Assembly (NCBI GenBank): GCA_963708025.1
Contig: CAVPSB010000035.1
Span: forward strand, 1 to 64,000
Direction: 5' to 3'
Source of the DNA: an uncultured Candidatus Rokubacteria bacterium
GTDB lineage: Bacteria > Methylomirabilota > Methylomirabilia > Rokubacteriales > DASRDR01
Length of the DNA stretch: 64,000 bases
The position numbers were made by a program, and so were the translations under genes. A model generated the notes under the pieces. The model made no database searches. It was not told the origin of the DNA and was given only the letters and a program-made list of their open reading frames with translations. Numbering within the stretch: the stretch's first letter is position 1; each line of letters opens with the position of its first letter. Positions 11,427 to 44,347 of the stretch are shown here, one piece after another.

Positions 11427-13391
11427 GTGAGCGGGACGCCGTTCCCCCGGCTCTTCAGCCCGCTTCCGCTGGGCCCCCGGATCGCGCGGAACCGGATCGT
11501 CAGCACGCCCCACACCACCGGGTTCGCCGTCGACGGCTTCCCCCGGGAGCGCTGGCTCGCCTACGAGCGCGAGAAGGCGCGCGGTGGGTGCGGGACGATC
11601 ATGATGTTCGGCTCGGCCTCGGTCCACCCGAGCTCGCCCGTCGCCGCCGCCGGTGGGGTCGAGCTGTGGGACCCGGCGGTGGTGCCGCACCTGCGCCGTA
11701 TGGCCGAGGCCGTCCACGCCGAGGGCGCCCTCTGCCTGGCCCAGGTCTCGCACTGGGGCCGGGGCGGGGTCGGGCCCTACGCCGACTGGCCGCTGCTGGC
11801 GCCGTCGGACGAGCCCGACGAGACGCACCACGGGATCCCGCGCGCTCTCTCGAAGGCCGAGATCCACGAGCTGGTCGACGCGTTCGGCCGCGCGGCCGCT
11901 CACGTCAAGCGCGGGCGGCTACGACGGCGTGGACCTCTCCTGCTGGGGCGGGCACCTCACCGAGCAGTTCCTCTCGCCGGTCAGCAACCGGCGGACGGAC
12001 GAGTACGGCGGCTCCCTCGACAACCGCATCCGGTTCTGCCTGGAGACGCTGGAGGCGGTGCGCGCCGCCGTCGGGCCCGACCTGATCGTCGGCGCGCGGC
12101 TGACCGGCGACCAGCTCGTGGAGGGCGGCCTGACCCTGGAAGACACCCAGGCCATCGCCGCCCGGCTGGCGGCCACCGGCCGGCTCGACTACGTCACGGT
12201 GAGCGGCGGCTCGACCGAGCAGTACCGCGCGCTCCCCTACGTCACCCCGACCTACTACGCGCCGCTCGGCCTCTACAACCGCTTCGCCGCCGCGGTGAAG
12301 GCGGTCGTGCAGGTCCCGGTCATCGTCGCCGGGCGGATCGTCCATCCCGCCCAGGCCGAGGAGGTGCTGGCCCAGGGCTGGGCGGACGCCGTCGCCATGA
12401 CCCGCTCGCTCATCGCCGACCCCGCGCTGCCCCGGAAGGCGAGGGACGGGCGGGTGGACGAGATCCGGATCTGCACCGGAGCCAGCGAGGCCTGCATCGG
12501 CCGGCGCATCCAGGGCAAGACGATCGCCTGCATCCAGAACCCGGCGATCGGCCGGGAGGCGGAGCTGGCCGACGTCCGCCCGGCCGACCGCGCGCGCCGG
12601 GTCGTGGTGGCCGGCGGCGGCGTCGCGGGGCTGGAGGCCGCCCGCCTGGCGGCGCGGCGCGGTCACCGGGTCGTCCTCTTCGAGGCGGCCCTCGAGCCGG
12701 GCGGCCAGCTCCGCGCGGTCTGGCGCTCGCCGGCGCGCCAGAGCTACCAGGAGGTCGTGCGCTGGCTCGTCGCCGAGGTCGGGCGGGCAGGGGTGGAGGT
12801 CCGGCTGGGGACCGAGGCGACGGCCGCGTCGGTCCTGGCCGAGCGGCCTGACGTCGTCGTGGTCGCCACCGGGGTCCGCCCTCGCGCGCTCGAGGTGCCC
12901 GTCGCGCCGGACGCCCACGTCGTGACCGCGGAGGACGTGCTGCTCGACCGCGTCGCGCCCGGGCCCCGGTGCCTGGTCGTGGACTACCACGGCCACATGC
13001 CGGGGCCGAGCGCCGCCGAATTCCTCGCCGACCGCGGGTGCCGGGTCGAGATCGCGAGCCGCTTCTTCACCGTCGGCGAGGACATCGACCCCCGGCTCAA
13101 GACCAGCGTGTACACGCGGCTCTACCAGAAGGGCGTGGTGCTGACGCCCCTGGCCGTGGTCCGGGAGATCGGCGCGGGCTGGGTCCGGCTGGCCAACACC
13201 CTGACCGGCCAGGAGCGGGTCGTCGAGGTGGACACCGTGGTCACGGCCCTCGGCGGCCGGGCGGACGACGCCCTGGCGCGCGGCGCTCGACGGCCAGGGC
13301 CGTCGAGCTCCACGTGGTGGGCGACGCCCTGGCGCCGCGCACGATCCACGACGCCATCCTCACCGCCACCCGCGCCGCCCGGCGCTTCTGA
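11427..13391 (+). CDS. Second, paralogous NADH:flavin oxidoreductase; frameshifts near 11912 and 13280-13300
   Basis: RNRIVSTPH, NRRTDEYGGSLDNRIRF, ICTGASEAC...CIQNP, GGGVAGLEAA, VGDALAPRTIHDAILTATRAARRF*. Confidence 0.88.
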
Positions 13392-13402
13392 CCCAGCGGG
13401 GC
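13264..13402 (+). repeat. Gene-tail repeat copy 1 (functional 3' end of oxidoreductase 11427-13391)
   Basis: Directly repeated with divergence at 13971-14107 and partially at 22143-22209. Confidence 0.92.
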
Positions 13403-13466
13403 CGGGCATTGATGAGGGGTCGTGGTTCTTCCGCATAAAAGAGTACGACGAATGACGGAGGCGAAT

Positions 13467-13905
13467 ATGGCAACCAACGTCAAGATCACCAGCCGCCCTG
13501 CTGGCGTGATCCGGCATGCCGGTACTGCGATCCGCTCGGTCAGCCCTGGCGTGATCGCGAAAGCGCTCGGGGCCGAGAAGGCTGTATCCAGGGAGAACGT
13601 TCTCGGCGCTCCGATTAGTCTGCACGCATTGCGACGGGCGCTGGAGAGCCGGGTTCGCTCCACGGGCGGGCGGCCGGCTCTGGAAGGGGCAACGAAGATC
13701 CAGAAGATTCCGCTGAGAGCCTGAAGACTGGTCTCGACTCGAAGAGTTGGCCGCCCAACTCTCTCAGGAAGGCGTCTCGGCTACAGCTGGACAGGTCGCG
13801 AGCGTAATGGTCCACAGCCAGTTGCAGCTCGTCGCACCATCAGCCACGCGCCAAGGGAGAACCTCTCGACGCCCGGCGACGCGGCGGGTAACCGGACATC
13901 GATGA
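13467..13905 (+). CDS. Small hypothetical protein, possibly DNA-binding/antitoxin-like; frameshift near 13720
   Basis: RBS GGAGG before ATG13467; STGGRPALEG..QKIPL continues in the shifted frame as EDWSRLEELAAQLSQEGVSATAGQVASVMV; lower GC than flanks. Confidence 0.6.
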
Positions 13906-13970
13906 TCACTCGTAGCCCAGGGGCTGCCGCTAGCCACATTGATCTCACTGCATTCGGATACATCGTTCGC

Positions 13971-14107
13971 GACGACGCCCTGGCCCGCGCGCTCGACGGG
14001 CAGGGCCTCGAGATCGACGTCGTGGGCGACGCCCTGGCGCCGCGCACGATCCACGACGCCATCCTCACCGCCACCCGCGCCGCCCGGCGCATCTGACCCG
14101 GCGGGGC
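13971..14107 (+). repeat. Gene-tail repeat copy 2 (diverged duplicate of oxidoreductase 3' end, stop and following bases)
   Basis: GACGACGCCCTGGC...GCCGCCCGGCGCATCTGACCCGGCGGGGC; encodes DDALARALDGQGLEIDVVGDALAPRTIHDAILTATRAARRI*. Confidence 0.92.
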
Positions 14108-14250
14108 GCGCCACGATCCAGTGGCCGACGGCGAGGGTGCCGATGTGACGCGAGAAGCTCGCGCCCGATCCTCGCGGCAGACCCGGCCGCCAGGCGTGAC
14201 CGAGTGCGCGGCCCGCCAAGGGGTCGCGGGGACGGCAACCGGCGCCGGGC

Positions 14251-15183
14251 TCAGCGGGCCGTGGGGGGCGCCGCCCGGTTGACCACGGTCATGGCGGTCG
14301 CGATCATGGCGCCGATGTCGGCGACGTTGGCGGGCACGATCAGGCTGTTGGTGGTCCGGGCCAGCTCCCCGAACTTGGTGATGTACTGCTCGGCCACCCG
14401 GAGCTGCACCGCCTCGACGCCCCCGGGCACCTGGATCGACTCCGCGACCCGGCGGATGCCCTCCGCGGTGGCGGCGGCGATGGAGAGGATGGCCGAGGCC
14501 GCGCCCTCCGCCTCGTTCATCTCCTGCTGACGCTTCGCCTCGGAGGCCTTGATGACCTGCTGCTTCTGGCCCTCGGCCACGTTGACGGCGGCGTCCCGCT
14601 CGCCCTCGGAGGTCAGGATGACGGCCCGCTTCTCCCGCTCCGCCCGCATCTGCTTCTCCATGGCGGCCAGCACGTCCTTGGGCGGGGTGATGTTCTTGAT
14701 CTCGTAGCGGAGCACCTTGATCCCCCACGGCTCCGATGCCTTGTCCAGCTCGCTGACGACCTGGCTGTTGATTTGGGTGCGCTCCTCGAAGGTGCGGTCC
14801 AGGTCGATCTTGCCGACCTCGCTGCGCAGGGTGGTCTGGGCGAGCTGGCTGATGCCGAACATGTAGTCGGCCACGCCGTAGGAGGCACGCTCCGGGTTCA
14901 TCACCTTGAGGTAGAGGACGCCGTCGACGCCGACCTGGACGTTGTCCCGCGTGATGCAGATCTGCTCGGGGATGTCGACGGCCGTCTCCTTCAGGGAGTG
15001 GCGGTACCGGATGGCGTCGAGGAAGGGGATCAGCAGGTGAAAGCCCGCGTGGAGCGTCGCCCGGTACTTGCCGAGCCGCTCCACGACGTAGGCGCTCTGC
15101 TGCGGTACCACCCTCGCCGTCTTCGCGATGACGATGATGACCAGCACGGCGAGCACCACGAAGACGACCAGCGCTTCCGTCAT
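14251..15183 (-). CDS. SPFH/stomatin-like (band 7, paraslipin) protein
   Basis: N-terminal TM, VVERLGKY, QICITRDNV, QLAQTTLRSEVGK, MEKQMRAEREKRA. Confidence 0.93.
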   Translation of the reverse strand: MTEALVVFVVLAVLVIIVIAKTARVVPQQSAYVVERLGKYRATLHAGFHLLIPFLDAIRYRHSLKETAVDIPEQICITRDNVQVGVDGVLYLKVMNPERASYGVADYMFGISQLAQTTLRSEVGKIDLDRTFEERTQINSQVVSELDKASEPWGIKVLRYEIKNITPPKDVLAAMEKQMRAEREKRAVILTSEGERDAAVNVAEGQKQQVIKASEAKRQQEMNEAEGAASAILSIAAATAEGIRRVAESIQVPGGVEAVQLRVAEQYITKFGELARTTNSLIVPANVADIGAMIATAMTVVNRAAPPTAR

Positions 15184-15199
15184 GCGCCCCTCCTCGGGA

Positions 15200-15631
15200 C
15201 TACTCGGCGACGACGCCGAGGGTGAGCCCGTCCACGCGCGTCACGCGGCAGCGCTGCCCGCGAGCGAGGGTGGTCGAGCCGTCGTTGTGCGCGGTCCACG
15301 TCGTGCCACGCAGCTCCACCTTGCCGACCGCGCCCGGCGCCAGATCCTCGATCGGGACGGCGATTTCCCCGACGACGCCGTCGATCACGGGCGCCGACCC
15401 TGGCCCCCGCGTTCGCGCGAGGAGCGGCCCGCGAAGCACCACGAGGGCCAGCACGGACACGACCGAGAACAGCAGCCACTCCATCCACGCCGGGCCGGCC
15501 AGGCCCAGGCCGGCCAGAATGCCCACGACGAGGGCCCCCGTCCCGAAGAAGAGGAAGAAGAACCCCATCGGCGTGAACAGCTCGAGCCCCACCAGCAGGA
15601 AGCCCAGGAGGATCCAGAGCCACCAGGTCAT
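15200..15631 (-). CDS. NfeD family (short) membrane protein, partner of SPFH
   Basis: WWLWILLG..LELFTPMGFF TM region, GKVELRGTTWTA, CRVTRVDGLTL OB-fold; directly upstream of SPFH. Confidence 0.88.
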   Translation of the reverse strand: MTWWLWILLGFLLVGLELFTPMGFFFLFFGTGALVVGILAGLGLAGPAWMEWLLFSVVSVLALVVLRGPLLARTRGPGSAPVIDGVVGEIAVPIEDLAPGAVGKVELRGTTWTAHNDGSTTLARGQRCRVTRVDGLTLGVVAE

Positions 15632-15815
15632 GCGCGCGCGAGCGTCGGCAGCCGGTCGATGGCGGCGCGAACGGCGCCCGTCACGCCCGGCATTCGAAGA
15701 GGAGTGCGTCGGCCACGGCGCGACGAGTCTAGCGGCCGGGCGTCCGGACGTCAACTGCTCGCATCCGGAGGCGCCTGCTCCGGAGGCGCCACCGGCGAGC
15801 GCCGGGCTCGTGCCG

Positions 15816-15930
15816 TTACCCGCCCCGTCGGCCCGGCGGGAAGATCACGAACGTCGTGCTTTCGCCGGGTCGCGTCTGGTAGCGGATCTGGCCCCCGTGG
15901 GTCTCGATGATCCGCTGGCAGATCGAGAGG
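15816..15930 (-). pseudogene. Orphan C-terminal fragment of a histidine kinase (HATPase_c end)
   Basis: LSICQRIIETHGGQIRYQTRPGESTTFVIF matches the G2-box tail; no upstream kinase sequence. Confidence 0.7.
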
Positions 15931-16252
15931 CAATTGGCCGAACGCCAGTTGACCGGGAGCCTCTTCAGGCAGATCATCCGGCGCGTCGAGCGGCTCGCTG
16001 GCATCCGACGTGATCGAGAGACCCACCCGGGAGCGGAGGCGATGAGGAGCAGGGGTCGAAGCAGCGGAGGTGTCTCTGAACAGGGCCGTCGGATTGACCA
16101 CACTCACAAGCGCGAGGCTGCGGACGGTCCATGCGTCGCGAGCATGACTTTCCTCGACCTACCGGAAAGGATGAACGAGCTGGGCGACTGGGTGATCCGC
16201 CCGTTCAAACGCACGAGGGAGGGGAGACGTGGGTCCATATCGGAAATCCCGG
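15931..16252 (+). mobile_element. Remnant of an IS (probably IS1380 family): transposase C-terminus and right-end region
   Basis: QLAERQLTGSLFRQIIRRVERLA-WHPT* resembles recalled IS1380-type transposase tails; candidate end CATATCGGAAATCCCGG near 16236-16252; family from recall, not a search. Confidence 0.55.
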
Positions 16253-16267
16253 GCTGAGTCGATTCGC

Positions 16268-17033
16268 GTGCGCGTGTGGGGGCTCGGTGTCCTGTTCGCG
16301 GTCGCGCTGACGATCGCGTTGGCGTCGGCCGAGCCCGTCGCCGTCCGCTACGCCGAGACCGTCACCCACGGCTTCCTCGTGCTGCGCGGGGCGAACGGCG
16401 ACGTCCTCGCCTATGGCGAGTTCGTGCAGGCGCCCATCGAGGGGCAGCGCATGGAGAGCCGCCTCGTGTTCCGCTTCAAGAACGGCTCCCTCTGGGACGA
16501 GACGGTGACGTTCACGCAGCAGAAGGTGTTCCGGCTGATGAGCTATCACCACATCGAGCGCGGCCCGTCCTTCCGCGAGTTCGACCGACGTGACCTTCGA
16601 TCGCGACACCGGCCGTTACCGAGCCAAGGTCAACGACAAGACCGACGACGGCAAGATCGAGCTGCCGGAAGACCTCCACAACGGGATCACGGGCACCATT
16701 TTGAAGAACCTGACGCCCGGCACCGCCGCCGCCGGCCACATGTTCGCGTTCACGCCGAAACCGTACCGGCTCGACACCGAGCTGCGCGCGGAGGGCGAAG
16801 ATAGGTTTTCCGTGGGCGACGTCGCGCGCACGGCCACGCGCTACCTCGTGAAGATGGAGCTGCGCGGTCTCACCGGCCTCGTGGCGTCGCTTATCGGCAA
16901 GGACCCCCCCGAGGTGCGCTACTGGATCACGACCGGGCCCGCGCCCGGGTTCGTGAAGTTCGAGGGGCCGATGTACCTGAAGGGCCCGCGCTGGCGCGTC
17001 GAGTTGACGGGGCCGCGCTGGCCCAAGCGCTGA
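16268..17033 (+). CDS. Hypothetical exported protein; frameshift near 16580
   Basis: Signal peptide ending ALASA-EP; ORFs 16229-16804 and 16590-17033 join into one coherent high-GC3 protein. Confidence 0.7.
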
Positions 17034-17175
17034 CTCAGCGCTCCGCCGGGCGCCTCGCGCAGCATCGCGATCAGGACCTCGCGGTTCTGCGCGGTTGTGG
17101 TGACCTCGCGCGGGAACGTGATGCGCGCGATCGACAGCGGTTGACGTCCTCGTTTGCCCGCGCTTTACCGGCTCG

Positions 17176-17286
17176 CGCCGGATCGTGGGCGCGGTGACGG
17201 GGCCCCACGCGGTGGGGCGGCTCCTGACGGCGCTCGGGCTCGCCGCGGAGCCGCCACCGGCCAGCTCCCGCCCGACCCGTTCCTGA
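17176..17286 (+). mobile_element. Remnant of IS91-family-like transposase extreme C-terminus
   Basis: RIVGAVTGPHAVGRLLTALGLAAEPPP resembles the RIIAxIxDPxVIxxILxHLGLxxEPP tail. Confidence 0.5.
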
Positions 17287-17467
17287 CCTTGCGGCCTTCG
17301 CCGCGCTCGCCGTTACCCCGGCGCCGGGACCCGCTCTGCCCGCGGCCCCGCCGGGGCCCCTCCCATCCCCGCGGCCCCGACCGTTGCCGGTCCGGCCCGA
17401 GCACGCTACACTCACGCGCATGAAGGTCGGGAGCCGCCCCGAGAGAAGCTCCCGATAGGAGGATCCG

Positions 17468-18769
17468 ATGGCCGAGGACACCGTCGTTGCTCGCCGAGGC
17501 TTCTTGCGCGTGGCCGCTGGTGCGACTGCTGCCGCCGGCGTCACGGGACTCCTGCCCCGGCGCGCGCGGGCCCAGGGACAGGCCGGGCGCGCGCTGAAGC
17601 TCGGATATGTGAGCCCGCAGACGGGGCCGCTCGCCGGCTTCGGCGAGACCGACAGCTTCGTGGTCGGCGGCGTGCGAAAGGCGGCCGGCAAGGGGCTCGC
17701 GATCCGCGATCGCACGCATCCCATCGAGATCCTCGTGCGCGACAGTCAGTCCGATCCCAACCGGGCGGCCGAGGTGGCGTCGCGCTTGATCCTGACCGAC
17801 AAGATCGACCTCATGCTGGTCGCGAGTACGCCGGAGACGACCAACCCCGTGGCCGATCAGTGTGAGGCCAACGGGATGCCCTGCGTCTCCACCATGTGCC
17901 CATGGCAGCCCTGGTTCTTCGGTCGCGGCGGCAAGCCCGAGACCGGTTTCAAGTGGACGTATCACTACTTCTGGGGGCTCGAGGACATCATCGGGGTGTT
18001 CGTCAACATGTGGAACACGCTGCCCACCAACAAGGTCGTCGGGGCCATCTGGCCCAACGACGGCGACGGCAACGCCTGGAGCGACAAGCAGCGCGGCTTC
18101 CCGCCCGAGCTCGCGAAGGCCGGGTACAAGGTCGTGGACCCCGGGCGCTATCCGAATCTGAGCGACGACTTCTCCGCGCAGATTTCCACGTTCAAGAACG
18201 AGAAGGTCGAGATCGTCACCGGCGTGCCGCTGCCGCCGGACTGGACGACCTTCTGGAAACAGGCCGCCCAGCAGGGCTTCCGCCCCAAGATCGCCACCGT
18301 CGGCAAGGCGCTGCTCTTCCCGCGCTCGGTCGAGGCGCTGGGCGAGCTGGGCGACGGCATGTCCACCGAGGTGTGGTGGTCGCCCCAGCATCCCTTCAAA
18401 TCGTCGCTCACGGGAGCCACGGCGAGTCAGCTCGCCGCCACCTATACGCAAGAGACGAAGAAGCAGTGGACCCAGCCGCTCGGCTTCATCCATTCGCTGT
18501 TCGAGGTCGGATTCGACGTGCTCAAGCGGGCGAGCAGCGTGGACGACAAGAACGCCGTGCTCGCGGCCATCAAGGCGACCAGCCTCGACACGATCGCCGG
18601 GCCCGTCAGCTGGGGCAAGGGGCCGGTGGCGAACGTGACCAAGACGCCGCTGGTCGGCGGCCAGTGGGGGCGCGGCAAGGGCGTTCCCTTCGACATGACG
18701 GTCGTCACCAACCGGAGCGCGCCCAGCATCCCCACCTCCGGCAAGCTACGGCCGCTCAAGCAGGCGTAG
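17468..18769 (+). CDS. Branched-chain amino acid-type ABC substrate-binding protein, Tat signal
   Basis: ARRGFLR leader; LKLGYVSPQTGPLAGFG, RDSQSDPNRAAEVA, DFSAQI. Confidence 0.9.
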   Translation: MAEDTVVARRGFLRVAAGATAAAGVTGLLPRRARAQGQAGRALKLGYVSPQTGPLAGFGETDSFVVGGVRKAAGKGLAIRDRTHPIEILVRDSQSDPNRAAEVASRLILTDKIDLMLVASTPETTNPVADQCEANGMPCVSTMCPWQPWFFGRGGKPETGFKWTYHYFWGLEDIIGVFVNMWNTLPTNKVVGAIWPNDGDGNAWSDKQRGFPPELAKAGYKVVDPGRYPNLSDDFSAQISTFKNEKVEIVTGVPLPPDWTTFWKQAAQQGFRPKIATVGKALLFPRSVEALGELGDGMSTEVWWSPQHPFKSSLTGATASQLAATYTQETKKQWTQPLGFIHSLFEVGFDVLKRASSVDDKNAVLAAIKATSLDTIAGPVSWGKGPVANVTKTPLVGGQWGRGKGVPFDMTVVTNRSAPSIPTSGKLRPLKQA

Positions 18770-18797
18770 TCCGACGGCGCTTCTCGCGCTCGAGGAG

Positions 18798-19496
18798 GTG
18801 TCCCGGGCGTTCGGCTCGCTGCGGGTCCTCGATCGCCTCACGCTGGCCGTCGGCGAGAACGAGGCGGTGGGTGTCATCGGGCCGAATGGCGCCGGCAAGA
18901 CGACGGCACTCCACCTGATGGCCGGACGCCTCCGCCCCGATCGCGGCCGGGTCGTGTTCGACGGGCGCGACATCACGGGGATGCCGGCTCACACCCGCTG
19001 CCGGGCCGGCATTGCGCTGACGCACCAGATCCCGCATCCCTTCGAGGCCCTGACGGTGTTCGAGAACGTCCTGGTCGGCGCCACGCACGGCGGCGGCCGG
19101 ACCGAGCGCGACGCCTATGCCGTCTGCCTCTCGACCCTCGAGCTGGCCGGGCTCACCGACAAGGCGAACGTGCGCGCGGGTGTGCTGACGTTGCTCGAAC
19201 GGAAGCGCCTGGAGCTGGCGCGGGCGCTCGCGACCGGACCGCGCGTCCTCCTGCTCGACGAGATCGCGGGCGGGCTGACCGAGCACGAGGTGCAGGAGGT
19301 GGTCGGCGTCGTCCGGCACGTCCGTGCGCAAGGTGTCGCGATCCTCTGGATCGAGCACATCGTTCACGCGCTCCGCTCGGCCGTGGATCGGCTCGTCGCC
19401 ATCCACCTCGGGAGGAGTCTGATGGACGGGCCGCCGGACGCCGTCATGGCGAGTCCCGAAGTGCAGCGGGTCTACCTCGGAATCGACGTGGCGTGA
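18798..19496 (+). CDS. Branched-chain ABC ATPase (LivG-like); true start probably about 9 codons upstream
   Basis: GPNGAGKTT, LELARALATGPRVLLLDE, WIEH, VQRVYLG. Confidence 0.9.
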   Translation: MSRAFGSLRVLDRLTLAVGENEAVGVIGPNGAGKTTALHLMAGRLRPDRGRVVFDGRDITGMPAHTRCRAGIALTHQIPHPFEALTVFENVLVGATHGGGRTERDAYAVCLSTLELAGLTDKANVRAGVLTLLERKRLELARALATGPRVLLLDEIAGGLTEHEVQEVVGVVRHVRAQGVAILWIEHIVHALRSAVDRLVAIHLGRSLMDGPPDAVMASPEVQRVYLGIDVA

Positions 19497-20191
19497 CACT
19501 GCTCGCCGTCCGCGACCTGTCGGCGTTCTACGGCGACTTCCAGGCCCTCTTCGGCGTCGCGCTCGACGTGGCCGAGGGCGAGACGGTGGCGGTGATCGGC
19601 GCCAACGGCGCCGGCAAGACGACGTTTCTCAGAGCGCTGGCCGGTGCCCTGCCGGTGGCTCGCGGCGCCGTCGTGTTCGCGGGCCGGCCGGTCGGCGGCC
19701 AGCCGCCGCACGTGCTCGTCGACCTCGGCATCGTCCTCGTGCCCGAGGGGCGGCGAATCTTTCCGAGCCTGTCCGTGCAGGAAAACCTTCAGATCGGCGC
19801 CTTCCGGCGGCGCGCCGGGCCGTGGACGCTCGAGCGCGTCTACCGGCTGTTCCCCGTCCTCGGCGAGCGACGCGATCAGCCCGGCACGAACCTCTCGGGG
19901 GGCGAGCAGCAGATGCTCGCGATCGGCCGCGGCCTGATGGCCAACCCGCGCCTCCTGCTCGTCAACGAGATGTCGCTCGGCCTGGCGCCGCTCGCCGTCA
20001 AGCAGCTCTACGAGGTGCTGGCCAGCGTCCAGCGCGAAGGGACCACGCTCCTGGTGGTCGAGGAGGACGTGAGTCAGGTTCTGGCGGTCGCGCAGCGTGT
20101 CTACTGTTTCCGCAAGGGGACTGTCTCGCTCGAGGGCGCACCCGCCGGGCTCAGCCGCGCCCAGATCTCGGCCGCGTACTTCGGAGCCTGA
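19493..20191 (+). CDS. Branched-chain ABC ATPase (LivF-like)
   Basis: GANGAGKTT, VPEGRRIF, LSGGEQQMLAIGR; Walker B reads LLVNE. Confidence 0.9.
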   Translation: MTLLAVRDLSAFYGDFQALFGVALDVAEGETVAVIGANGAGKTTFLRALAGALPVARGAVVFAGRPVGGQPPHVLVDLGIVLVPEGRRIFPSLSVQENLQIGAFRRRAGPWTLERVYRLFPVLGERRDQPGTNLSGGEQQMLAIGRGLMANPRLLLVNEMSLGLAPLAVKQLYEVLASVQREGTTLLVVEEDVSQVLAVAQRVYCFRKGTVSLEGAPAGLSRAQISAAYFGA

Positions 20192-20194
20192 TCG

Positions 20195-21067
20195 ATGGCC
20201 TGGCTCGACACCGTCGTGCAGGGCGTCCTGCTCGGCGGCCTCTACGCGCTCTTCGCGACCGGGCTCTCGCTGATCTTCGGCGTCATGCGCCTGGTGAACC
20301 TCGCCCACGGCGACTTCAGCATCCTGGCGGCCTTTCTCGCCGTCGTCGTCGTGGGGGCCCTCGGGCTCAACCCGCTGGTCGCGCTGGTCGTGGTGGTGCC
20401 CGTCATGGCGATGCTCGGCTACGTGCTGCAGCGGCTGGTGCTCAACCGGCTGCTGGGGCGCGGCATCCTGCCGGCCGTGCTCGTGACGTTCGGCTTCTCC
20501 ATCGTCATCCAGAACGGCCTGCTCGAGACGTTCTCCGCGGACTCCCAGCGGCTCAACCCCGGCGGCATCGAGACGGCGAGTCTCGCCCTCGGCGGGGGGC
20601 TGGCCGTCGGCTGGTTTTCGTTGCTGACGTTCGCGGTGGCCGTCGGGCTCCTGGTCGGGCTCCAGCTCCTCATCGGCCGCACGGCGATCGGCCGCGCCTT
20701 TCGGGCGACCTCGGACGACGGCGAGACGGCGGCGCTGATGGGGATCGACACCCGGCGACTCTACGGACTCGCGATGGCGCTGTCGCTGGCCATCGTCGCG
20801 GTCGCCGGGGTCTTCCTCGGCATCCGCACGACCTTCACGTTCGCGAGCGGCCCCGACCGGCTCCTCTTCGCCTTCGAGGCGGTGATCATCGGGGGGCTTG
20901 GCTCCTTGTGGGGCACGCTGGTCGGCGGCGTGATCCTCGGCGTGGCGCAGACGATCGGCGCGAAGCTCTCGCCGGGCTGGGGCGTGCTGACCGGACATCT
21001 GGTGTTCCTCGGTGTCCTGCTGTTGCGCCCGTCCGGTCTGTTCGCGAAGTCCCGGCGCGTGGACTGA
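20195..21067 (+). CDS. Branched-chain ABC permease (LivH-like)
   Basis: YALFATGLSLIFGVMRLVNLAHG, GRAFRA, IIGGLGS. Confidence 0.92.
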   Translation: MAWLDTVVQGVLLGGLYALFATGLSLIFGVMRLVNLAHGDFSILAAFLAVVVVGALGLNPLVALVVVVPVMAMLGYVLQRLVLNRLLGRGILPAVLVTFGFSIVIQNGLLETFSADSQRLNPGGIETASLALGGGLAVGWFSLLTFAVAVGLLVGLQLLIGRTAIGRAFRATSDDGETAALMGIDTRRLYGLAMALSLAIVAVAGVFLGIRTTFTFASGPDRLLFAFEAVIIGGLGSLWGTLVGGVILGVAQTIGAKLSPGWGVLTGHLVFLGVLLLRPSGLFAKSRRVD

Positions 21068-22077
21068 TGGCGCCCGCCACCCTGGCGGTCGAGCGCACCA
21101 CCCGGGCCAGCCGCGCCGGCGCGGTCGGCGCCGCTGTCCTGCTCGCCGGGCTGATCGCCCTGCCGTTGACGCGCGACGCTGGACTCATGCGTATGGTCGT
21201 CGAGCTCATCGCGTTCCTGGTGCTGGCGCAGATGTGGAATCTGCTTGCCGGCTATGCGGGCCTCGTCTCGATCGGGCAGCAGGCGTACGTCGGCCTCGGC
21301 GGCTACGCGCTCATCGTGCTGGCCGACGATCTCGGGGTGAATCCGTTCCTCGCGGTGCCTCTCGCCGGCGTGGCGGCGGCCGGATTCGCCCTCCCCACCG
21401 CCGCGCTCGTGTTCCGCTTCCGCGGCGGCTACTTCGCGGTCGGCACTTGGGCGGTCGCCGAGGTCTATCGGCTGCTCATCGCCAACACGACGGCGCTCGG
21501 GCGGGGCACCGGGCGCACGTTGAAGGCGGTGTTCCCGCTCGTCCGGGAGACGCGCGAGCTGGTGACGTATGGCCTCGCCGTGGCGGTTGGCGTCGGCGCG
21601 ATGGTCGCCGTGTACTTCTACGTGCGCTCGCGCCTGGGTGTCGGTCTGATGGCCGTTCGTGACAGCGAGCCGGCGTCGGAGAGCCTCGGCGTCAACGTGT
21701 TTCGCACCAGGCTCACGGTCTATCTGATCGCGGCCTTCGGAACGGGAGTGACGGGCGCGCTCATCTACCTGAACCTGCTCCGTATCTCGCCCGACGCGGC
21801 GTTTTCGATCAACTGGACCGCCTACACGATCTTCATCGTCGTGATCGGCGGTCTCGGCACGCTGGAGGGACCGATCGTGGGCGCGGTCGTCTTCTTCCTG
21901 CTCCGCGAGCTGCTGGCCGACTACGGCGCCTGGTACATGATCCTGCTCGGCTCGCTCGCCGTGCTGACGATGATGTGCTATCCGCAGGGCCTGTGGGGTC
22001 TGGTCGCCGAGCGGTGGGATCTGCATCTCTTCCCGGTGCAGCGACGCGTCAGGATGGGCGCAGCCGCGAGGCGATGA
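21067..22077 (+). CDS. Branched-chain ABC permease (LivM-like)
   Basis: WNLLAGYAGLVSIGQ, GGYFAVGT, AVRDSE, VIGGLGTLEGP. Confidence 0.9.
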   Translation: MAPATLAVERTTRASRAGAVGAAVLLAGLIALPLTRDAGLMRMVVELIAFLVLAQMWNLLAGYAGLVSIGQQAYVGLGGYALIVLADDLGVNPFLAVPLAGVAAAGFALPTAALVFRFRGGYFAVGTWAVAEVYRLLIANTTALGRGTGRTLKAVFPLVRETRELVTYGLAVAVGVGAMVAVYFYVRSRLGVGLMAVRDSEPASESLGVNVFRTRLTVYLIAAFGTGVTGALIYLNLLRISPDAAFSINWTAYTIFIVVIGGLGTLEGPIVGAVVFFLLRELLADYGAWYMILLGSLAVLTMMCYPQGLWGLVAERWDLHLFPVQRRVRMGAAARR

Positions 22078-22142
22078 CGAGCGCCGCGACGGAGGTGAGC
22101 TCCGTCGGATACACTTGGGTCCCCATCCCCCCGCCGCGCCCG

Positions 22143-22209
22143 CCCCTGGCGCCGCGCACGATCCACGACGCCATCCTGACCGCCACCTGCGCCGCCCGGC
22201 GCATCTGAC
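22143..22209 (+). repeat. Gene-tail repeat copy 3 (last ~65 nt of oxidoreductase 11427-13391)
   Basis: CCCTGGCGCCGCGCACGATCCACGACGCCATCCTGACCGCCACCTGCGCCGCCCGGCGCATCTGA. Confidence 0.9.
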
Positions 22210-22231
22210 GAGGCCGGGGCGCCCTGTTGTC

Positions 22232-22260
22232 TTGCACAAGTGCCATCGTCGTATTACACT
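22232..22260 (+). promoter_or_regulatory. sigma70-type promoter of TA operon (probably leaderless)
   Basis: TTGCAC-N17-TACACT, 7 nt before GTG22268. Confidence 0.65.
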
Positions 22261-22267
22261 GGTCGGC

Positions 22268-22519
22268 GTGAAGACCCTCACCGTGCGATTGCCCGAGGCC
22301 CTGGTCGCGGAGATCGAAGCCGAGTCTCGCGAACGTCGGCGCTCGAAGTCCGACGTTGTTCGGGAACGCTTGAGCCGCGTCGCCGGGCCGCGCGCGAGGC
22401 CCGCGTCCCCGGCCATTGCCGATCTCGTGGGCTCGGTCGGTGGGTTGCCGGCCGATCTGAGTGGGCAGAAGAAGGCCTACTTGAAGACCACGGGTTATGG
22501 CCGGAAGCGCGCTCGTTGA
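22268..22519 (+). CDS. Ribbon-helix-helix (CopG-like) antitoxin
   Basis: KTLTVRLPEALVAEIEAESRERRRSKSDVVRERL; overlaps PIN gene. Confidence 0.82.
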   Translation: MKTLTVRLPEALVAEIEAESRERRRSKSDVVRERLSRVAGPRARPASPAIADLVGSVGGLPADLSGQKKAYLKTTGYGRKRAR

Positions 22520-22907
22520 CGCCGGTTTTCTGATCGCCCTTCTGAGCCGCCGGGACCGCCATCACGCATGGGCGGCGGCCCAATCCCCGGGTCTTGCCCC
22601 GCCTTGGAAAACCTGCGAAGCGGCCCTCTCGGAGGCCTTCCATCTTCTCGGGGCTCGGGGCCGACCTAGCCTCGCCACGCTTCTTCGCCGCAGCGCTGTG
22701 GTCTCCGCCTTCGACCTCACGGACGAACTGGACCGAGTCTTGAATCTCATGCAGAAGTACGCCGACGTCCCGATGAGTCTTGCGGATGCCTGCCTCGTGA
22801 GGATGAGCGAAACCCTGGCCGATCCTGTCATCCTGACCACCGATGCTGATTTCCGCATCTATCGCCGCCACGGTCGTCACGTTGTTCCCTGCGTGACCCC
22901 GTACTGA
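22497..22907 (+). CDS. PIN-domain (VapC-like) toxin
   Basis: LVDAGFLIA..D..H, LSEA, MSLADACL, ILTTDADF..YR acidic PIN residues. Confidence 0.88.
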   Translation: MAGSALVDAGFLIALLSRRDRHHAWAAAQSPGLAPPWKTCEAALSEAFHLLGARGRPSLATLLRRSAVVSAFDLTDELDRVLNLMQKYADVPMSLADACLVRMSETLADPVILTTDADFRIYRRHGRHVVPCVTPY

Positions 22908-22967
22908 CGGAATTCGAACCCGCGTGTGGGTCTGCCACGCTGCGACGTCGGGAGCCGGACGACCCGG

Positions 22968-23152
22968 CCTACTCCGGTGGCGGAATGAGATTCAGCAGGG
23001 GGCTCGTCCCGGGTGGCCATCTCCGCCCGCGCCACGTTGACGAGGACGGCGGTCGGCTTCATGGCCCGAAGCTCGCGGTCCCGACGAGGCCGCGGGTCCG
23101 GGGCGTGAGCGGCAGCGCGAGCGCCGGGTAGTCGGCGCGCCTCAGCACGCTG
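22968..23152 (-). repeat. Degenerate, internally deleted duplicate of the 3' end of the dehydrogenase at 24013-24994
   Basis: 23019-23152 matches 24281-24415; 22968-23018 matches 24012-24062 including the stop (CCTACTCCGGTG). Confidence 0.85.
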
Positions 23153-23353
23153 TAGCGCACGGCTGAGGTCAACCCCCAACAAATCTCTCGCGTCGTCGTC
23201 GCGCGAGCTGATGAACGCGGCGGGGAGCGTCAACGGTCGGAGGTAGCTCCGGGTGGGCAGTTGGACGGGCCGCGCTCGAGGTCACGGGCCGGTGAAACGC
23301 CCTGCCACTCTACGCTATCATCGGGTGGCCGCCAGGCCGAGGGGGATGCCGCC

Positions 23354-23848
23354 ATGACGATGTACTGGAAGGAGATCACGGTCAACTGGGGTGAGTCCGA
23401 CCCGTTCGGGCTCGTCTACTACCCCCGGATCGTCGCCTGGTTCAACGACACCGAGCACGAGCTGTTCCGGACCATCGGCTACCCGATCGAACAGATGATC
23501 AAGAACGATCGCACGACCTTCGTGATGGGCGAGATCCACTTCCGCTTCATCGGCCCCGCCGCCTACGGCGACCGGATCATCACGACCATCACGCTGGCCG
23601 AGATCGGCGAGCACACGCTGCACTGGAACTGCAAGGCCAAGAACGCGCTCACCGGCGCGGAGGTCAGCGAGGGCCGGGCCACCCGTGTGTACGCGCGCAT
23701 CAACGAGGACGGCACGCTGAAGGCACACCCCATCCCGGAAGAGATGCGGAGCGCGCTCCGCGAGCTGGGCGATCTCAAGCATCTCCGGCCGAACAGCGGG
23801 CCGTCCAAGCTGCCGGCCGCGAGCCACCTGCGGCAGCAGCCGCCCTAG
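23354..23848 (+). CDS. Acyl-CoA thioesterase (4HBT/hotdog family)
   Basis: VNWGESDPFGLVYYPR, FRFIGPAAYGD, PIPEEMR. Confidence 0.85.
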   Translation: MTMYWKEITVNWGESDPFGLVYYPRIVAWFNDTEHELFRTIGYPIEQMIKNDRTTFVMGEIHFRFIGPAAYGDRIITTITLAEIGEHTLHWNCKAKNALTGAEVSEGRATRVYARINEDGTLKAHPIPEEMRSALRELGDLKHLRPNSGPSKLPAASHLRQQPP

Positions 23849-23851
23849 ATG

Positions 23852-23922
23852 CTTCGGGGGGGTGTCGGAACACCCCCCCGATGCCCCCCCGCCGTTGCGC
23901 CGGCGAAGCCGGCGCTCGGAGC
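23852..23922 (+). repeat. REP-like palindromic element, family A
   Basis: Hairpins TCGGGGGGGTGT-CGGA-ACACCCCCCCGA and GCGCCGGC-GAA-GCCGGCGC; relatives at 28890, 55916, 57814. Confidence 0.8.
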
Positions 23923-24012
23923 GCTGTTCGATGCACGCCTCGCGGATCGACTTTCGCGAGGCTACGCCGACACGCCCTAGGCCATTTCGGGAGGCTCGGA
24001 AAGCCCTTGGTC

Positions 24013-24994
24013 CTACTCCGGTGACGAGATCTGATTCAGGGGGGGCTCGCCCCGCGCGGCCCGGTGGATGTTCTCCGCGATGAGGGTCGCGCGCGCCTCC
24101 ACCATGCCTTCGGTCCAGCCGGACACGTGCGGCGTCATGAGGACGTTCGGCAGCTCGTGGAACGGCCGTTGCGCGGGCAGCGTCGGGTGGGGATCGGACG
24201 GGTACCGGTACCAGACGTCGAGGGCGGCGCCCGCGATCCGCCGCTCGGCCAGCGCCTCGTAGAGCGCGTCCTCGTCGACGATCTCCGCCCGCGCCACGTT
24301 GACGAGGAGGGCGGTCGGCTTCATGGCCCGAAGCTCCGGGTCCCCGAGGAGGCCGCGGGTCTCGGGGGTGAGCGGCAGGGTGATCGCCAGGTAGTCGGCG
24401 CGCGTCAGCACGCTGCTCGAGGGCGTCGGGCCCCCGGAGGACGACGAGGCCCTGGCGGTCGGGCTGCGTGGCGTCGCGGCGGATCGCCAGGACCGTCATG
24501 TCGAACGCCCGGGCGCGCCGGGCCAGGGCCTGGCCGATCCGGCCGTAGCCGAGGATGCCGAGCGTCTTGCCGGCCAGCTCCGGCCAGGGCGCCGGGGGCG
24601 GCGCCGACACCGCCCACTGGCTCTCCCAGTCTCCGCGCCGGAGGCGGGCGTCGAGGCGGCAAAAGCCGCGGCTCAGTGCCAGCATGGCCCCGATCACGTA
24701 CTCCGCGATGCCGCGCTCGTGGCCATAGGCATTCGCCAGCCACGTGCCGGGCGAAAGCGCGGCTCGGTCGATCCGGTCGAGGCTGGCGCCGGGCACCTGG
24801 ACGAGCCTGAGGCGTTGGGCCGACGCCCCCATCTCGCGGGTGAACGCCATGCTGACGAGGACGTCCACATCGGGAAGCGGGGAGCCGATCCCGGCCTCCT
24901 CGTCCACGACGACGTCGCACGGGATCGCCAGGTGGGACCGGATTGGCTCCGCGAGGCGGGCCGCGAAGACACCGGCGAAGGCGACGCGAAGCAT
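24013..24994 (-). CDS. D-isomer-specific 2-hydroxyacid dehydrogenase; frameshift near 24415
   Basis: IAEYV, ELAGKTLGILGYGRIG, LPLTPETRG, LVNVARA, AALDVW, TPHVSG. Confidence 0.88.
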
Positions 24995-25030
24995 GCTTGG
25001 CCATCTTGTTCGGCAACGACCAGGGATGCA

Positions 25031-42577: not shown

Positions 42578-43687
42578 ATGGCGGAAGCGCGGCTGAACCT
42601 GCCCTTCACCGGGCTCGTGTCCTTCATGCGCGTCCCGGCCTGCACGGATCTCACGGCCATCGACGCGGACATCGCGATCCTGGGCACGCCGACCGACGAG
42701 GGCTCGCCGTGGAAGCCGGGCGCCCGCTTCGCGCCGCGGAAGATCCGGGAGCTGTCGGTCAAGTACGCGGGGTACGGGCCGACGCAGAACCAGCTCGGCT
42801 ACTACGACATCGAGGAGGACCGGCGCTACCTGGAGTACGAGCGGCAGCACCGCCGCATCGTCGACTGCGGGGACTCCGACATCATCTACACCAACGTCCG
42901 GCGCACCTTCGACAACATCACGCGCGACGTCAAGGCGATCCTGAAGGCGGGGGCCTTCCCGGTGGTCATCGGCGGCGACCACGCCGTCACCTACCCGGTC
43001 GTCCGGGCCTACCAGGAGCGGCTCAACGTCGTCCACTTCGACGCCCACCTGGACTACCGGCCGTTCATCCACGGGGTGCAGTGGGCCAACGGGAATCCCA
43101 TCCGGAACGTCTCGCAGCTCAAGAACTGCCACCACATCATCCAGGTCGGCATCCGGAGCCTCCGCACGAGCCAGGCCGACGTGGCGGACTCGCGGGCGCG
43201 CGGGAACGACGTCGTGACCATCCCCGAGTTCCGGCGGCGGGGTCACCAGGCCATCGTCGACCGGCTGCCCAAGGGCGAGCCGGTCTACGTCTCGATCGAC
43301 ATCGACGTCCTGGACCTGCCGCTGGTTCCGGGGTGCGCGTCGTCGGAGGTGAACGGGCTCACCTACGACGAGCTGCGCCAGACGCTCTTCGCCATCGCGC
43401 GGAGCCGGGAAGTCATCGGCTTCGACCTGGTCGAGGTGAACCCGATGCTCGACGTGGCCTCGGACAACACCTCGCTGATCGCCGCCCAGCTCATCATCGA
43501 GTTCCTCGGGCGGATCGTCGAGCACCCGGGCTACCGCAAGCGCCACCCCATGCGCGAGGCCGCCCCCACCAACGGCCGCGGCCGCCCGGCGCCGGGCCGG
43601 CCGGCGCCGGCGACCTCCTCGGACGGCGGCCGTCTGCGGACCGGCAGCGCCCGGGTGGGAGCCGCCCGCTCAGCTCGAAGGCGGTGA
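42578..43687 (+). CDS. Ureohydrolase (agmatinase/arginase family)
   Basis: GARFAP, GGDHAV, HFDAHLD, SIDIDVLD, FDLVEVNP. Confidence 0.9.
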   Translation: MAEARLNLPFTGLVSFMRVPACTDLTAIDADIAILGTPTDEGSPWKPGARFAPRKIRELSVKYAGYGPTQNQLGYYDIEEDRRYLEYERQHRRIVDCGDSDIIYTNVRRTFDNITRDVKAILKAGAFPVVIGGDHAVTYPVVRAYQERLNVVHFDAHLDYRPFIHGVQWANGNPIRNVSQLKNCHHIIQVGIRSLRTSQADVADSRARGNDVVTIPEFRRRGHQAIVDRLPKGEPVYVSIDIDVLDLPLVPGCASSEVNGLTYDELRQTLFAIARSREVIGFDLVEVNPMLDVASDNTSLIAAQLIIEFLGRIVEHPGYRKRHPMREAAPTNGRGRPAPGRPAPATSSDGGRLRTGSARVGAARSARRR

Positions 43688-43751
43688 GCGCCTCCTCTGG
43701 CTGCTTCATGCTGACTACCCCCCGGGGTATACTCCGAAGCAGAGTGTGCTG

Positions 43752-44345: not shown

Positions 44346-44347
44346 AC

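Follow-up and report, generated by a model that had tools for sequence, protein, structure and literature searches.

The 64,000-nucleotide stretch analysed here (the window), from an uncultured Rokubacteria-like bacterium of soil, carries, between a conserved oxidoreductase gene (ox2) and a convergent dehydrogenase gene, diverged second copies of the 3′ ends of both genes with unrelated genes lodged between them, and the question is how such a region was built. The original prediction held that the repeated ends are real and that they punctuate an array of imported cassettes. The oxidoreductase side comprises the following features:

11427..13391 (start approximate), plus strand: ox2 oxidoreductase (Oxidored_FMN and Pyr_redox_2 by Pfam), live parent of the repeated end
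13264..13402, plus strand: repeat copy 1, comprising the 42 C-terminal codons of ox2, its stop codon and the next 11 nt (BLASTN)
13971..14109, plus strand: repeat copy 2, an orphaned end of ox2 with its stop codon intact (BLASTN)
22144..22222, plus strand: repeat copy 3, the older of the two orphaned ox2 ends, with the last 21 codons, the stop and about 13-18 nt further (BLASTN)

A BLASTN search against the entire 8.17-Mb assembly confirmed the repeats. Copy 1 (13264-13402) matched copy 2 (13971-14107) at 93.5% over 139 nt (E = 8.6e-53), 13327-13392 matched copy 3 (22144-22209) at 95.5% over 66 nt (E = 1.8e-23), and the two orphans (14032-14109 and 22144-22222) matched each other at 93.7% over 79 nt. 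Other paralogues in the genome reach only 70-75% of identity to the ox2 and dehydrogenase ends, including the end (11258-11416) of the tandem full-length oxidoreductase paralogue at 9442-11416, directly upstream of ox2 (~11427-13391). As predicted, the stop codon is present in each of the three ox2 copies, with RRF* as the end of copy 1 and RRI* as that of copies 2 and 3, and the left boundaries of the orphans differ; their right boundaries lie where likeness between relatives ceases anyway, since ox2 orthologues (79-89% nt) all lose likeness at 13381-13407. In the 66 nt common to the three copies there is 1 mismatch between copies 1 and 2, 2 between copies 2 and 3 and 3 between copies 1 and 3, in agreement with the claim that the newest cargo adjoins the gene. 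A 34-nt stretch is identical across all three, and the mismatches of copy 2 are uneven, with 6 in its left 63 nt compared to 1 in its right 66 nt. Single extra bases near 11912, 13281 and 13297 interrupt the ox2 reading frame; they are probably long-read consensus errors, as they are absent from the short-read contigs of close relatives.

The DNA between these copies and up to the dehydrogenase is a series of blocks:

13403..13970, plus strand: cargo 1, 568 nt, about 63-65% GC, a truncated remnant of a unit of two genes with unassigned function
13413-13455, plus strand: remnant of gene A in cargo 1, its last 14 codons
13467-~13896, plus strand: gene B in cargo 1, with a 1-nt error near 13717
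14110..22143: cargo 2, a mosaic of 8.0 kb
14251-15183, minus strand: SPFH gene in cargo 2 (Band_7, Pfam)
15200-15754, minus strand: NfeD in cargo 2 (Pfam)
15816-~15990, minus strand: C-terminal scrap of a histidine kinase in cargo 2 (HATPase_c)
16229-17033, plus strand: gene of unassigned family in cargo 2, with a 1-nt error near 16580
~17170-17287, plus strand: end scrap, about 40 codons, of an IS91-family (Y2_Tnp) transposase in cargo 2
17468-22077, plus strand: liv-type ABC operon in cargo 2 (Pfam)
22223..22909, plus strand: toxin-antitoxin cassette (RHH-like/PIN) that includes a promoter region of its own (PIN by Pfam)
23153..24011: cargo 3, between the dehydrogenase orphan and the live gene
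23354-23848, plus strand: 4HBT-type thioesterase gene in cargo 3 (Pfam)
~23852-23926: dispersed short repeat in cargo 3

The region is rich in gene scraps. Of the pieces earlier read as IS scraps, one is indeed the IS91-family end and the other is the histidine-kinase fragment; likewise, the PIN half of the proposed RHH-PIN pair is borne out by Pfam, while its partner has no match in Pfam or NCBIfam and is RHH-like by eye only. Of 182 other genomes in the order, 7 have units homologous to cargo 1, and all of these belong to another family; in 6 other genomes the unit occupies differing contexts. Likeness to these units extends from 13410-13414 to 13965; the right joint of cargo 1 has at most 'CG' in common with the target, and one sharp joint shows no more than 3 nt of shared letters. 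The RHH-like/PIN cassette is a discrete unit found in other genomes too, with likeness over 22222/22250-22907/22909 in G020 (two copies, 88-89%), G034 (82%) and G010 (80%), and the closest relatives of the thioesterase (83-90% nt) belong to another family of the order. Contigs from independent samples terminate at the block boundaries 13391, 13965 and 14238, and within cargo 2 those of other samples do so at 14238, 15825, 16229/17041 and 17344. Close strains (95-99%) are present in many soils and carry other DNA at these junctions.

A second gene end is repeated on the dehydrogenase side, and further along the window a third locus shows the same arrangement:

24012..24995, minus strand: D-2-hydroxyacid dehydrogenase gene (Pfam), one frame break near 24416
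24012-24415, minus strand: dehydrogenase end, parent of the orphan
22968..23152, minus strand: orphan dehydrogenase end with a 218-nt internal deletion
42578..44491, plus strand: third locus
43463-43605, plus strand: repeated part of the arginase-family gene at the third locus
43746-44345, plus strand: Uma2 nuclease-family gene, the cargo of the third locus
44348-44491, plus strand: orphan copy of the arginase-family segment, 93.8%

The dehydrogenase orphan consists of matches to 24281-24415 (at 23019-23152, 90.4% over 135 nt, E = 6.9e-46) and to 24012-24061 (at 22968-23018, 80% over 51 nt), which adjoin in the orphan, so that 218 nt are missing internally.

The check for such copies across the genome revealed that the pattern recurs. 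We considered 72 low-copy local direct-repeat pairs (71 from the scan plus the ox2 pair, which the copy-number filter had dropped); gene maps were made for 19 regions outside the ox2/dehydrogenase finding, and about 40 of the 72 pairs were judged by automatic table alone, not gene by gene. The order gene end, cargo, orphan end was seen in 12 pairs in 11 mapped regions, and 3 further pairs show a mirror-image build with a duplicated gene head. The build occurs on about 8-9 contigs and amounts to at least 16 scars in one genome, affecting at least 15 different target genes with repeats of 58 to 386 nt. The mapped repeat pairs are 81-97% alike and none is identical, meaning either that the process is old or that the copies were unlike from the start.

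Relatives supply empty sites at some of these sister loci. At L029, where the insert is a complete toxin-antitoxin pair of 606 nt, 20 of 40 other genomes have the two flanks joined directly, with an overlap of 78-98 nt; by alignment, the 98-nt duplication runs across the stop of livG and the start of livF that overlaps it. Both neighbours remain whole, and since the duplicated segment spans two overlapping genes, the duplication had to arise at insertion itself to keep them so. At L036, where the cargo is 167 nt, only 61 nt separate the flanking genes in genome G005, which has the gene end once, and at L034 the flanking genes are about 105 nt apart in G006. Two other sister-locus searches found no empty site. 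At ox2, 4 genome relatives and 6 metagenome contigs (76-89%) have no empty site either: likeness ends at the stop codon, and what follows it is different DNA in each. Relatives of the dehydrogenase and arginase-family loci gave the same picture, with no empty site, likeness stopping at the stop codon and variable DNA downstream.

The original prediction interpreted the copies as alleles imported by recombination in the conserved gene. In 16 live-end/orphan pairs the differences at codon positions 1/2/3 number 40/31/49, compared to 16/17/67% in functional orthologues over the whole gene and 21/13/66% over gene ends alone; the two ox2 pairs gave 4/1/1 and 2/0/1. Because this spectrum is near even and unlike that of functional orthologues, we read the orphans as decaying duplicates and not as imported alleles; it fits duplicates identical at birth of which the orphan decayed later. 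This result and the overlap duplication at L029 speak against the allelic interpretation as the main process. One pair, C14:199256, is allele-like (1/0/10 over the codon positions), so homology-driven events are possible at single loci, such as this one.

Searches for an enzyme or site gave little. Tyrosine recombinases (PF00589) have no match on contig C35 compared to 23 matches genome-wide, which supports the prediction of successive integrase-free insertions behind a conserved gene. None of 62 window proteins scanned matched recombinase or transposase families, and no integrase was found among 72 proteins of sister-locus cargo, where a transposase domain occurs only at L033, a locus left out of the count. 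No tRNA or Rfam match was obtained across 13-25 kb, and no common core or end motif was found across loci; no k-mer at cargo starts or ends exceeded the random control (best 7-mer in 4 of 16, reached by 15 of 200 control sets). The genome holds 2 Ku genes, 3 LigD primase-polymerase genes and ComEC.

Together, these results suggest that the region probably consists of insertions with long target duplication, stacked twice behind ox2, as read from the junctions in the assembly. We base this on the repeats and their order, the absence of a recombinase, the recurrence across the genome, the empty sites at sister loci, the neutral decay of the orphans and the one sharp joint. Cargo DNA without a recombinase of its own would have been joined in by illegitimate joints; two of the inserted pieces are cassettes that other Rokubacteria genomes carry too. 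One joint would lie a few bases past the stop codon and the other 60-400 nt upstream within the gene, so that the segment in between would flank the cargo left and right. With one copy still joined to it the gene would stay whole, while the displaced copy would retain the old downstream context and then decay. At ox2 there would have been at least two events, the older duplicating about 79 nt (copy 3) and the younger duplicating 139 nt (copy 2) and bringing cargo 1; a single event at the dehydrogenase would have duplicated about 404 nt, later partly deleted. The duplication would arise at the moment of insertion, either by Ku/LigD end joining between staggered or sister-chromosome ends or by template switching, with a broken replication fork returning upstream of its departure point; we favour these two options. 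Selection may be the reason that only insertions straddling a gene boundary survive. Counting against this explanation, crossover or gene conversion would also yield the uneven differences of copy 2, no empty site turned up for ox2 itself, C14:199256 is allele-like and no mapped pair is identical.

The rival that deserves most weight, although we consider it rather unlikely, is that DNA of a diverged strain paired by homology, supplied its own 3′ end plus cargo and was closed by an illegitimate joint in the old end, leaving donor and recipient alleles; it could operate by homology-facilitated illegitimate recombination or by single-crossover entry of a circularised fragment. It accommodates the variable left boundaries and the right ones at the end of likeness, the 34 identical nt, the uneven divergence along copy 2, pair C14:199256, ComEC, and the many soil strains with other DNA at the junctions. 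Against it stand the near-uniform codon spectrum of the 16 pairs and L029, where a donor would itself need the duplication since the genes overlap. Moreover, the left joint of cargo 1 is already illegitimate, into a cut gene, and the model therefore merely shifts the primary event into an unseen donor; homology-facilitated illegitimate recombination is also known for deletions of recipient DNA and not for duplications. Site-specific elements are classically recognised by direct repeats of a 3′ end that preserve the gene. Together with the 34-nt identity, the PF00589 matches elsewhere in the genome and the IS91-family scrap in cargo 2, such repeats could point to elements that used an integrase to enter an attachment site in the gene's 3′ end, brought a replacement end and later lost the integrase or were mobilised in trans. 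We regard this as improbable: the contig lacks an integrase, cargoes of 568, 606 (L029) and 167 nt (L036) are too small ever to have held one, the numerous targets and variable repeats have no common motif, head duplications exist too, and 13-25 kb is free of tRNA and Rfam matches.

Gene loss offers another route, whereby a second nearby full-length gene lost its 5′ part and left its end behind. Tandem oxidoreductase paralogues and plentiful scraps lend it some colour, but the orphans are 90-96% like the adjoining gene compared to 70-75% for true paralogues, relatives at L029 and L036 have one gene, one end and contiguous flanks, and nothing in it makes the orphan always abut the old downstream neighbour; it is very improbable. 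Even less credible is a mixed-strain long-read assembly that stitched variants into false second gene ends. Marker genes put the contamination of the bin at 8.2%, 1-nt consensus errors are many, and the junctions are known from the assembly, the public datasets searched for the source reads reaching at most 0.34 of sampled words. However, the copies differ by 3-19% with sharp and specific boundaries, the build recurs on several contigs, long reads are not confused by repeats of 60-400 nt, a chimera would not leave both neighbours of the L029 insert whole, and the independent-sample contigs end at the same boundaries.

Phage 21 and e14 in the E. coli icd gene and the cis-mobilisable elements of streptococci are site-specific elements of gene 3′ ends that bring a replacement end. 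Like the present loci they leave a whole gene and a partial 3′-end copy past the cargo, and in tandem accretion the newest element lies beside the gene. They need an integrase and one fixed core, whereas the contig studied here lacks an integrase and the loci have no motif in common; the inserts go down to 167-606 nt, in many unrelated targets and with variable repeat lengths. Integron arrays and integrase-less attC clusters also hold unrelated small cargoes with a recurring short spacer and the newest at the entry point, and in this loose sense of serial cargo the predicted integron-like array is apt. Here, however, there is no intI and no common recombination site: what recurs is the coding end of a gene and not a folded attC, there is no RNA or DNA family match, and the repeat differs from one target gene to the next. 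Kindred displaced-end systems are the orphan arrays of Rhs and CDI. The orphan modules of polymorphic toxins and T6SS effectors, in the available part of PMC5361080, likewise form arrays behind a conserved gene, with older modules pushed downstream and keeping a fragment of the conserved part; there the gene's own variable end and immunity gene are exchanged, driven by homology of the conserved core. Here the end of the gene does not change, and the cargo has no relation to it. Homology-facilitated illegitimate recombination uses a homologous anchor and usually deletes recipient DNA, whereas here the recipient segment is duplicated, and the alleles of different origin that go with it are disfavoured by the codon-position test. 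As far as the accessible portion of PMC3240628 goes, it shares with our loci a recombinase-free entry of foreign DNA, by one or more illegitimate joints at which the partners have little or no sequence in common.

This kind of insertion scar has been described already and is unusually common in this genome. Insertion with long target duplication was reportedly described by Nobusato, Uchiyama, Ohashi and Kobayashi in 2000 (Gene 259:99). In the sections available of Furuta, Abe & Kobayashi 2010 (PMC2853133), its mechanism is likewise unexplained, and the cases resemble ours in cargo below 20 kb without a mobility gene, in direct repeats of 46-423 bp with 90-100% likeness and no further copy in the genome, in a repeat that aligns once with the empty site of a related genome (here at sister loci) and in some repeats that overlap the 3′ end of the adjoining gene. 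Those cases were gathered for restriction-modification genes, whereas here the cargo includes toxin-antitoxin, Uma2, thioesterase, transport operon and ordinary metabolic genes. Compared to the same sections of that paper, ox2 itself differs in that no empty site is at hand, and the present genome differs in its scars, at least 16 in this one genome with two stacked behind one gene, and in its older repeats (81-97%).

The window is formed by the initial 64 kb of contig C35, in an assembly of 8.17 Mb in 49 contigs at 71% G+C, and searches of the whole genome with the repeated gene ends returned matches with E-values of 1e-23 to 1e-53, confirming that the repeats described in the original prediction are real. 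These sequences are otherwise unique in the genome, the sole further matches being paralogues at 70-75%. The stop codon is retained in all three oxidoreductase copies; copy 1 ends RRF* and copies 2 and 3 end RRI*, an ending also present in two of four orthologues. The orphan end of the convergent dehydrogenase consists of two matching parts, between which 218 nt are absent. The elements of the region are the following.

13264-13402 (+): copy 1, the live end of the second gene (11427-13391) in the tandem oxidoreductase pair
13403-13970: cargo 1
13971-14107: copy 2, an orphan end, 93.5% over 139 nt relative to copy 1
14110-22143: cargo 2, with SPFH and NfeD genes preceded by a histidine kinase end scrap, a gene without a family (16229-17033), an IS91-family transposase end scrap and a liv-type ABC operon
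22144-22222: copy 3, a shorter orphan end, 95.5% over 66 nt relative to the gene and 93.7% over 79 nt relative to copy 2
22223-22909: RHH-like/PIN cassette
22968-23152: orphan end of the dehydrogenase gene, in parts of 135 nt (90.4%) and 51 nt (80%)
23153-24011: cargo 3, with a thioesterase gene
24012-24415 (-): live end of the D-2-hydroxyacid dehydrogenase gene (24012-24995)
43746-44345: Uma2 gene carried as cargo elsewhere in the window

Single-base frame breaks interrupt the oxidoreductase, cargo 1, the gene at 16.2-17.0 kb and the dehydrogenase. At positions 11912/13, 13281, 13297, 13717 and 16580, contigs assembled from short reads of other samples, and belonging to close relatives, have exactly one base fewer, which suggests that the breaks at these positions are probably long-read consensus errors and that the genes concerned can be taken as intact; apparent pseudogenes in this assembly consequently need careful reading. 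Compared with two orthologues, the dehydrogenase has one base too many at its break near 24416, and further single-base differences of the same kind were seen at 14481, 17366 and 20195. The closest named relatives of the window are long-read MAGs of Candidatus Rokubacteria. Among the 24 public runs listed, 20 (the list covering 14 studies) held at most 0.34 of the sampled words; the four runs that were examined yielded just short contigs from related strains, and none of their listed contigs bridged a junction.

Recurrence of the arrangement was assessed by comparing the genome with itself, in which 306 local pairs of direct repeats measuring 55-450 nt were found, 71 of them low-copy; the oxidoreductase pair, removed by the copy-number filter, was added to these. 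We drew gene maps for 19 regions, with genes beyond the window called by our own GC3-based method, and scanned 72 of their proteins, while about 40 pairs were judged by the automatic table only. In twelve pairs, from 11 regions on 8 contigs, a gene end is followed by 0.17-11 kb of cargo and then by an orphan duplicate of the gene end (58-339 nt, 81-97%), and three more pairs show the mirror image, with the head of a gene duplicated. Genome-wide recurrence of gene-end copies, which the original prediction had proposed as a check, was observed. Of the 19 mapped regions, 4 are of other kinds (insertion sequences, fragments of a transposase or integrase, or paralogues in tandem), and a few pairs are unclassed. 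The cargo includes a HicA-like toxin pair, a DUF433/DUF5615 pair, regulators, enzymes and an 11-kb block, and several insertions are located between genes of a single ABC operon. No integrase was detected in the cargo of the gene-end scars among the 72 proteins scanned.

Empty sites in relatives were clearest at the livG/livF locus (L029), where a 606-nt toxin-antitoxin insert separates the two genes. The flanks are contiguous in 20 of the 40 further genomes compared, with matches overlapping by 78-98 nt, and alignment shows that a 98-nt segment covering the livG stop and the overlapping livF start is single in these relatives; both genes are whole here only because this segment has been duplicated. 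At the amino-acid-kinase/racemase locus (L036), the flanking genes lie 61 nt apart with a single gene end in genome G005, and at a further locus (L034) they lie about 105 nt apart in G006, an empty site by adjacency. The amino-acid-kinase/racemase junction, which in our genome holds a 167-nt insert and an orphan end in place of the 61 nt of G005, measures about 970 nt in G029 (L075, contig C222) and 10.3 kb in G006 (L076, contig C399), and it appears to be a shared insertion hotspot. Searches at two more loci (L035 and L047), at the arginase-family locus (42578-44491, +) and at the dehydrogenase returned no empty site. Behind the oxidoreductase, likeness ends at the stop codon in all ten relatives, comprising four genomes (about 81% at the nucleotide level) and six metagenome contigs (76-89% over the whole set of ten), with different DNA following in each; likeness to four named Rokubacteria MAG contigs stops at the same codon, and no empty or alternative-cargo allele was readable in the genome relatives, MAG contigs or metagenome contigs. 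The unpublished genome G038 was among those searched for relatives, for the L029 empty site and for the PIN, thioesterase and dehydrogenase sequences, and no claim depends on it.

The cargo blocks differ in composition and in the relatives they point to. Cargo 1 is a cut-off piece of a two-gene unit, its left end being the last 14 codons of the first gene of that unit (gene A). Gene B has homologues in 7 of the 182 other genomes of the order; all seven genomes belong to another family, and none of the 20 genomes from the family of our bacterium has one; the context of the unit differs in every genome that carries it. Cargo 2 is a mosaic whose inner seams are the places where contigs from other samples end. 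The RHH-like/PIN pair is a discrete cassette, for which likeness to other genomes runs from 22222/22250 to 22907/22909, starting exactly at the end of copy 3, with two copies in G020 (88-89%) and one each in G034 and G010. The nearest relatives of the thioesterase in cargo 3 (83-90%) come from another family of the order. Pfam and NCBIfam gave no family for either gene of the cargo 1 unit, for the RHH-like protein or for the gene at 16229-17033. Three cargo blocks open with the 3' scrap of a former upstream gene, at 13413-13455 (gene A), 15816-15990 (-, histidine kinase) and 17170-17287 (transposase). Transferred pieces seem to start inside the end of the preceding gene, perhaps since only pieces that retain the promoter persist.

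The IS91-family (Y2_Tnp) scrap that precedes the liv operon resembles, at 87%, a repeat present three times on contig C18 of the same genome (52304-52739, 55512-55718 and 58942-59377). Tyrosine-recombinase fragments surround this repeat, and the sole Y2_Tnp match above cut-off in the vicinity falls within it. Between the thioesterase and the dehydrogenase stop, a short dispersed repeat (23852-23926; about 75-115 nt) has 124 BLAST matches genome-wide, one of 100% at C18:432963-433037, and is matched in G002 and G006 as well; in appearance it is a REP- or MITE-type element. The end of the PIN toxin gene has an orphan copy of 110 nt (92%) at C13:190837-190946 (L085:2338-2447) of our genome, between groEL and a LigD gene and distant from any PIN gene, which probably derives from an RHH-like/PIN cassette that has otherwise been lost. 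In G020 the cassette occurs twice (L081 on contig C59 and L082 on C87) as a 1139-nt unit whose copies are 98.4% identical. One of them is flanked by two copies, one full and one partial, of an insertion sequence with an rve_3 transposase, and the cassette could have spread by a composite-transposon route; the 400-nt direct repeat around it was rejected as a scar of the same kind, being these two insertion sequence copies.

A site-specific element integrating into gene 3' ends would require a cognate integrase and one constant core at all junctions. The genome has 23 matches to PF00589, none of them on the contig of the window (C35), and none of the 62 window proteins scanned belongs to an integrase, resolvase or transposase family, so the original statement that the window lacks an integrase holds. 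Pfam likewise found no intact mobility gene in the inserts, the transposase scrap within the 8-kb block amounting to about 40 codons. A stretch of 34 nt is identical within the oxidoreductase copy set, and across 16 junction pairs of different loci nothing was shared above a random control when the k-mers of cargo starts and of cargo ends were compared. The 9-mer TCGGATACA, present in the left flanks of copies 2 and 3, was dropped as a possible element end because its distance to the copies varies and nothing comparable is common to other loci. No tRNA was found in 13-25 kb, nor any Rfam match at E <= 1 in 13000-25000; a T-arm-like 16-mer just after the PIN stop (22907-22922), considered as a tRNA attachment site, has its best tRNA match in the T-arm of a tRNA-Glu gene (15 of 16 nt), drew no call from ARAGORN or Rfam, and probably reflects chance. 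An integron, or an integrase-less attC array, would show intI and/or attC sites between cassettes; the PF00589 search of the contig and the Rfam search of 13000-25000 found neither, and the separators are coding gene ends. For cargo 1 the source form is known. Likeness to the source units starts at 13410-13414 in six genomes and stops at 13965 in the best one; the right joint is sharp, with at most 'CG' common to the target, and at the left joint about 10 bases are unassigned, with a 9-of-11 match of target to source next to them. These joints and the lack of a common k-mer across the 16 loci identify the joining as illegitimate and not site-specific.

Whether the copies are imported diverged alleles, as originally predicted, can be judged from codon positions. 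Homology-facilitated illegitimate recombination or single-crossover import from a donor should leave mostly third-position differences, as in functional orthologues of the oxidoreductase (about 16/17/67% at positions 1/2/3; nine comparisons) or in gene ends only (21/13/66%; sixteen comparisons over three genes), comparisons that are not mutually independent. In contrast, the 120 differences over 16 live-end/orphan pairs fall 40/31/49, with 4/1/1 and 2/0/1 in the oxidoreductase pairs alone. One neutral and one constrained lineage would give such a near-uniform spectrum, and from it and the 218 nt lost from the dehydrogenase orphan we take most of the orphans to be duplicates in decay; the allele reading is not supported as a general account. 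A single pair of the 16, at C14:199256, is allele-like (1/0/10), and the divergence of copy 2 is uneven, with 6 differences in its left half and 1 in its right, so homology-driven exchange or conversion is possible at single loci. A diversity-generating retroelement was rejected, since mismatches are not confined to A (A takes part in 39 of the 120 differences, and C and G are exchanged in 48), and no reverse-transcriptase family was found among the window proteins. Over the 66 nt common to the three copies, copy 1 and copy 2 differ once, copies 2 and 3 twice, and copies 1 and 3 three times. These counts fit an older event that produced copy 3 and a younger one that produced copy 2, with the newest cargo adjoining the gene, an order that the original prediction had anticipated.

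Ku is encoded twice in the genome, the LigD primase-polymerase three times and ComEC once; end joining is possible on this basis and is not proved by it. End joining by Ku/LigD, acting on staggered ends or on those of sister chromosomes, might produce the duplications, as might template switching at forks, and selection would let only those insertions survive that duplicate a gene boundary. That such a general pathway, free of recombinase and homology and filtered by selection, is a main route of gene gain in Rokubacteria, building stacked arrays and spreading cassettes, is a tentative proposal that we consider rather doubtful. If true, stacked, integron-like arrays would be built behind conserved genes, even within operons, promoter-bearing cassettes such as toxin-antitoxin pairs would spread by it, and the roughly 20 dated scars in one genome would make the origin of long target duplications answerable from junction sequences.

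Gene gain without a mobile-element enzyme can, as this case shows, be frequent in a large soil-bacterial genome, and such insertions can enter operons, keep them intact and leave a scar that is datable. For annotation, orphan gene ends of this type should not be labelled genes or att sites, and variable regions behind conserved genes are not necessarily a sign of integrases. As assembled, the window pattern matches the "insertion with long target duplication", its junctions being known from the assembly alone. In the passages of PMC2853133 that define it, this class is based on restriction-modification genes, with inserts below 20 kb that lack mobility genes and flanking unique direct repeats above 30 bp that align once with the empty site. 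How such duplications arise has been an open question ever since the class received its name in 2000, and many scars of different ages, together with cargo of known source form (cargo 1 and the PIN cassette), provide material for junction analysis. No empty site was found at the oxidoreductase, dehydrogenase or arginase-family loci, and one was seen at L029, L036 and L034. The repeats measure 139, 79 and about 404 nt (135 and 51 nt of the last remaining after the deletion), all above 30 bp, and the inserts between them 568 nt, 8.0 kb and 859 nt, all below 20 kb, so that in repeat length, insert size, absence of mobility genes and uniqueness of the repeats the window agrees with the known class.
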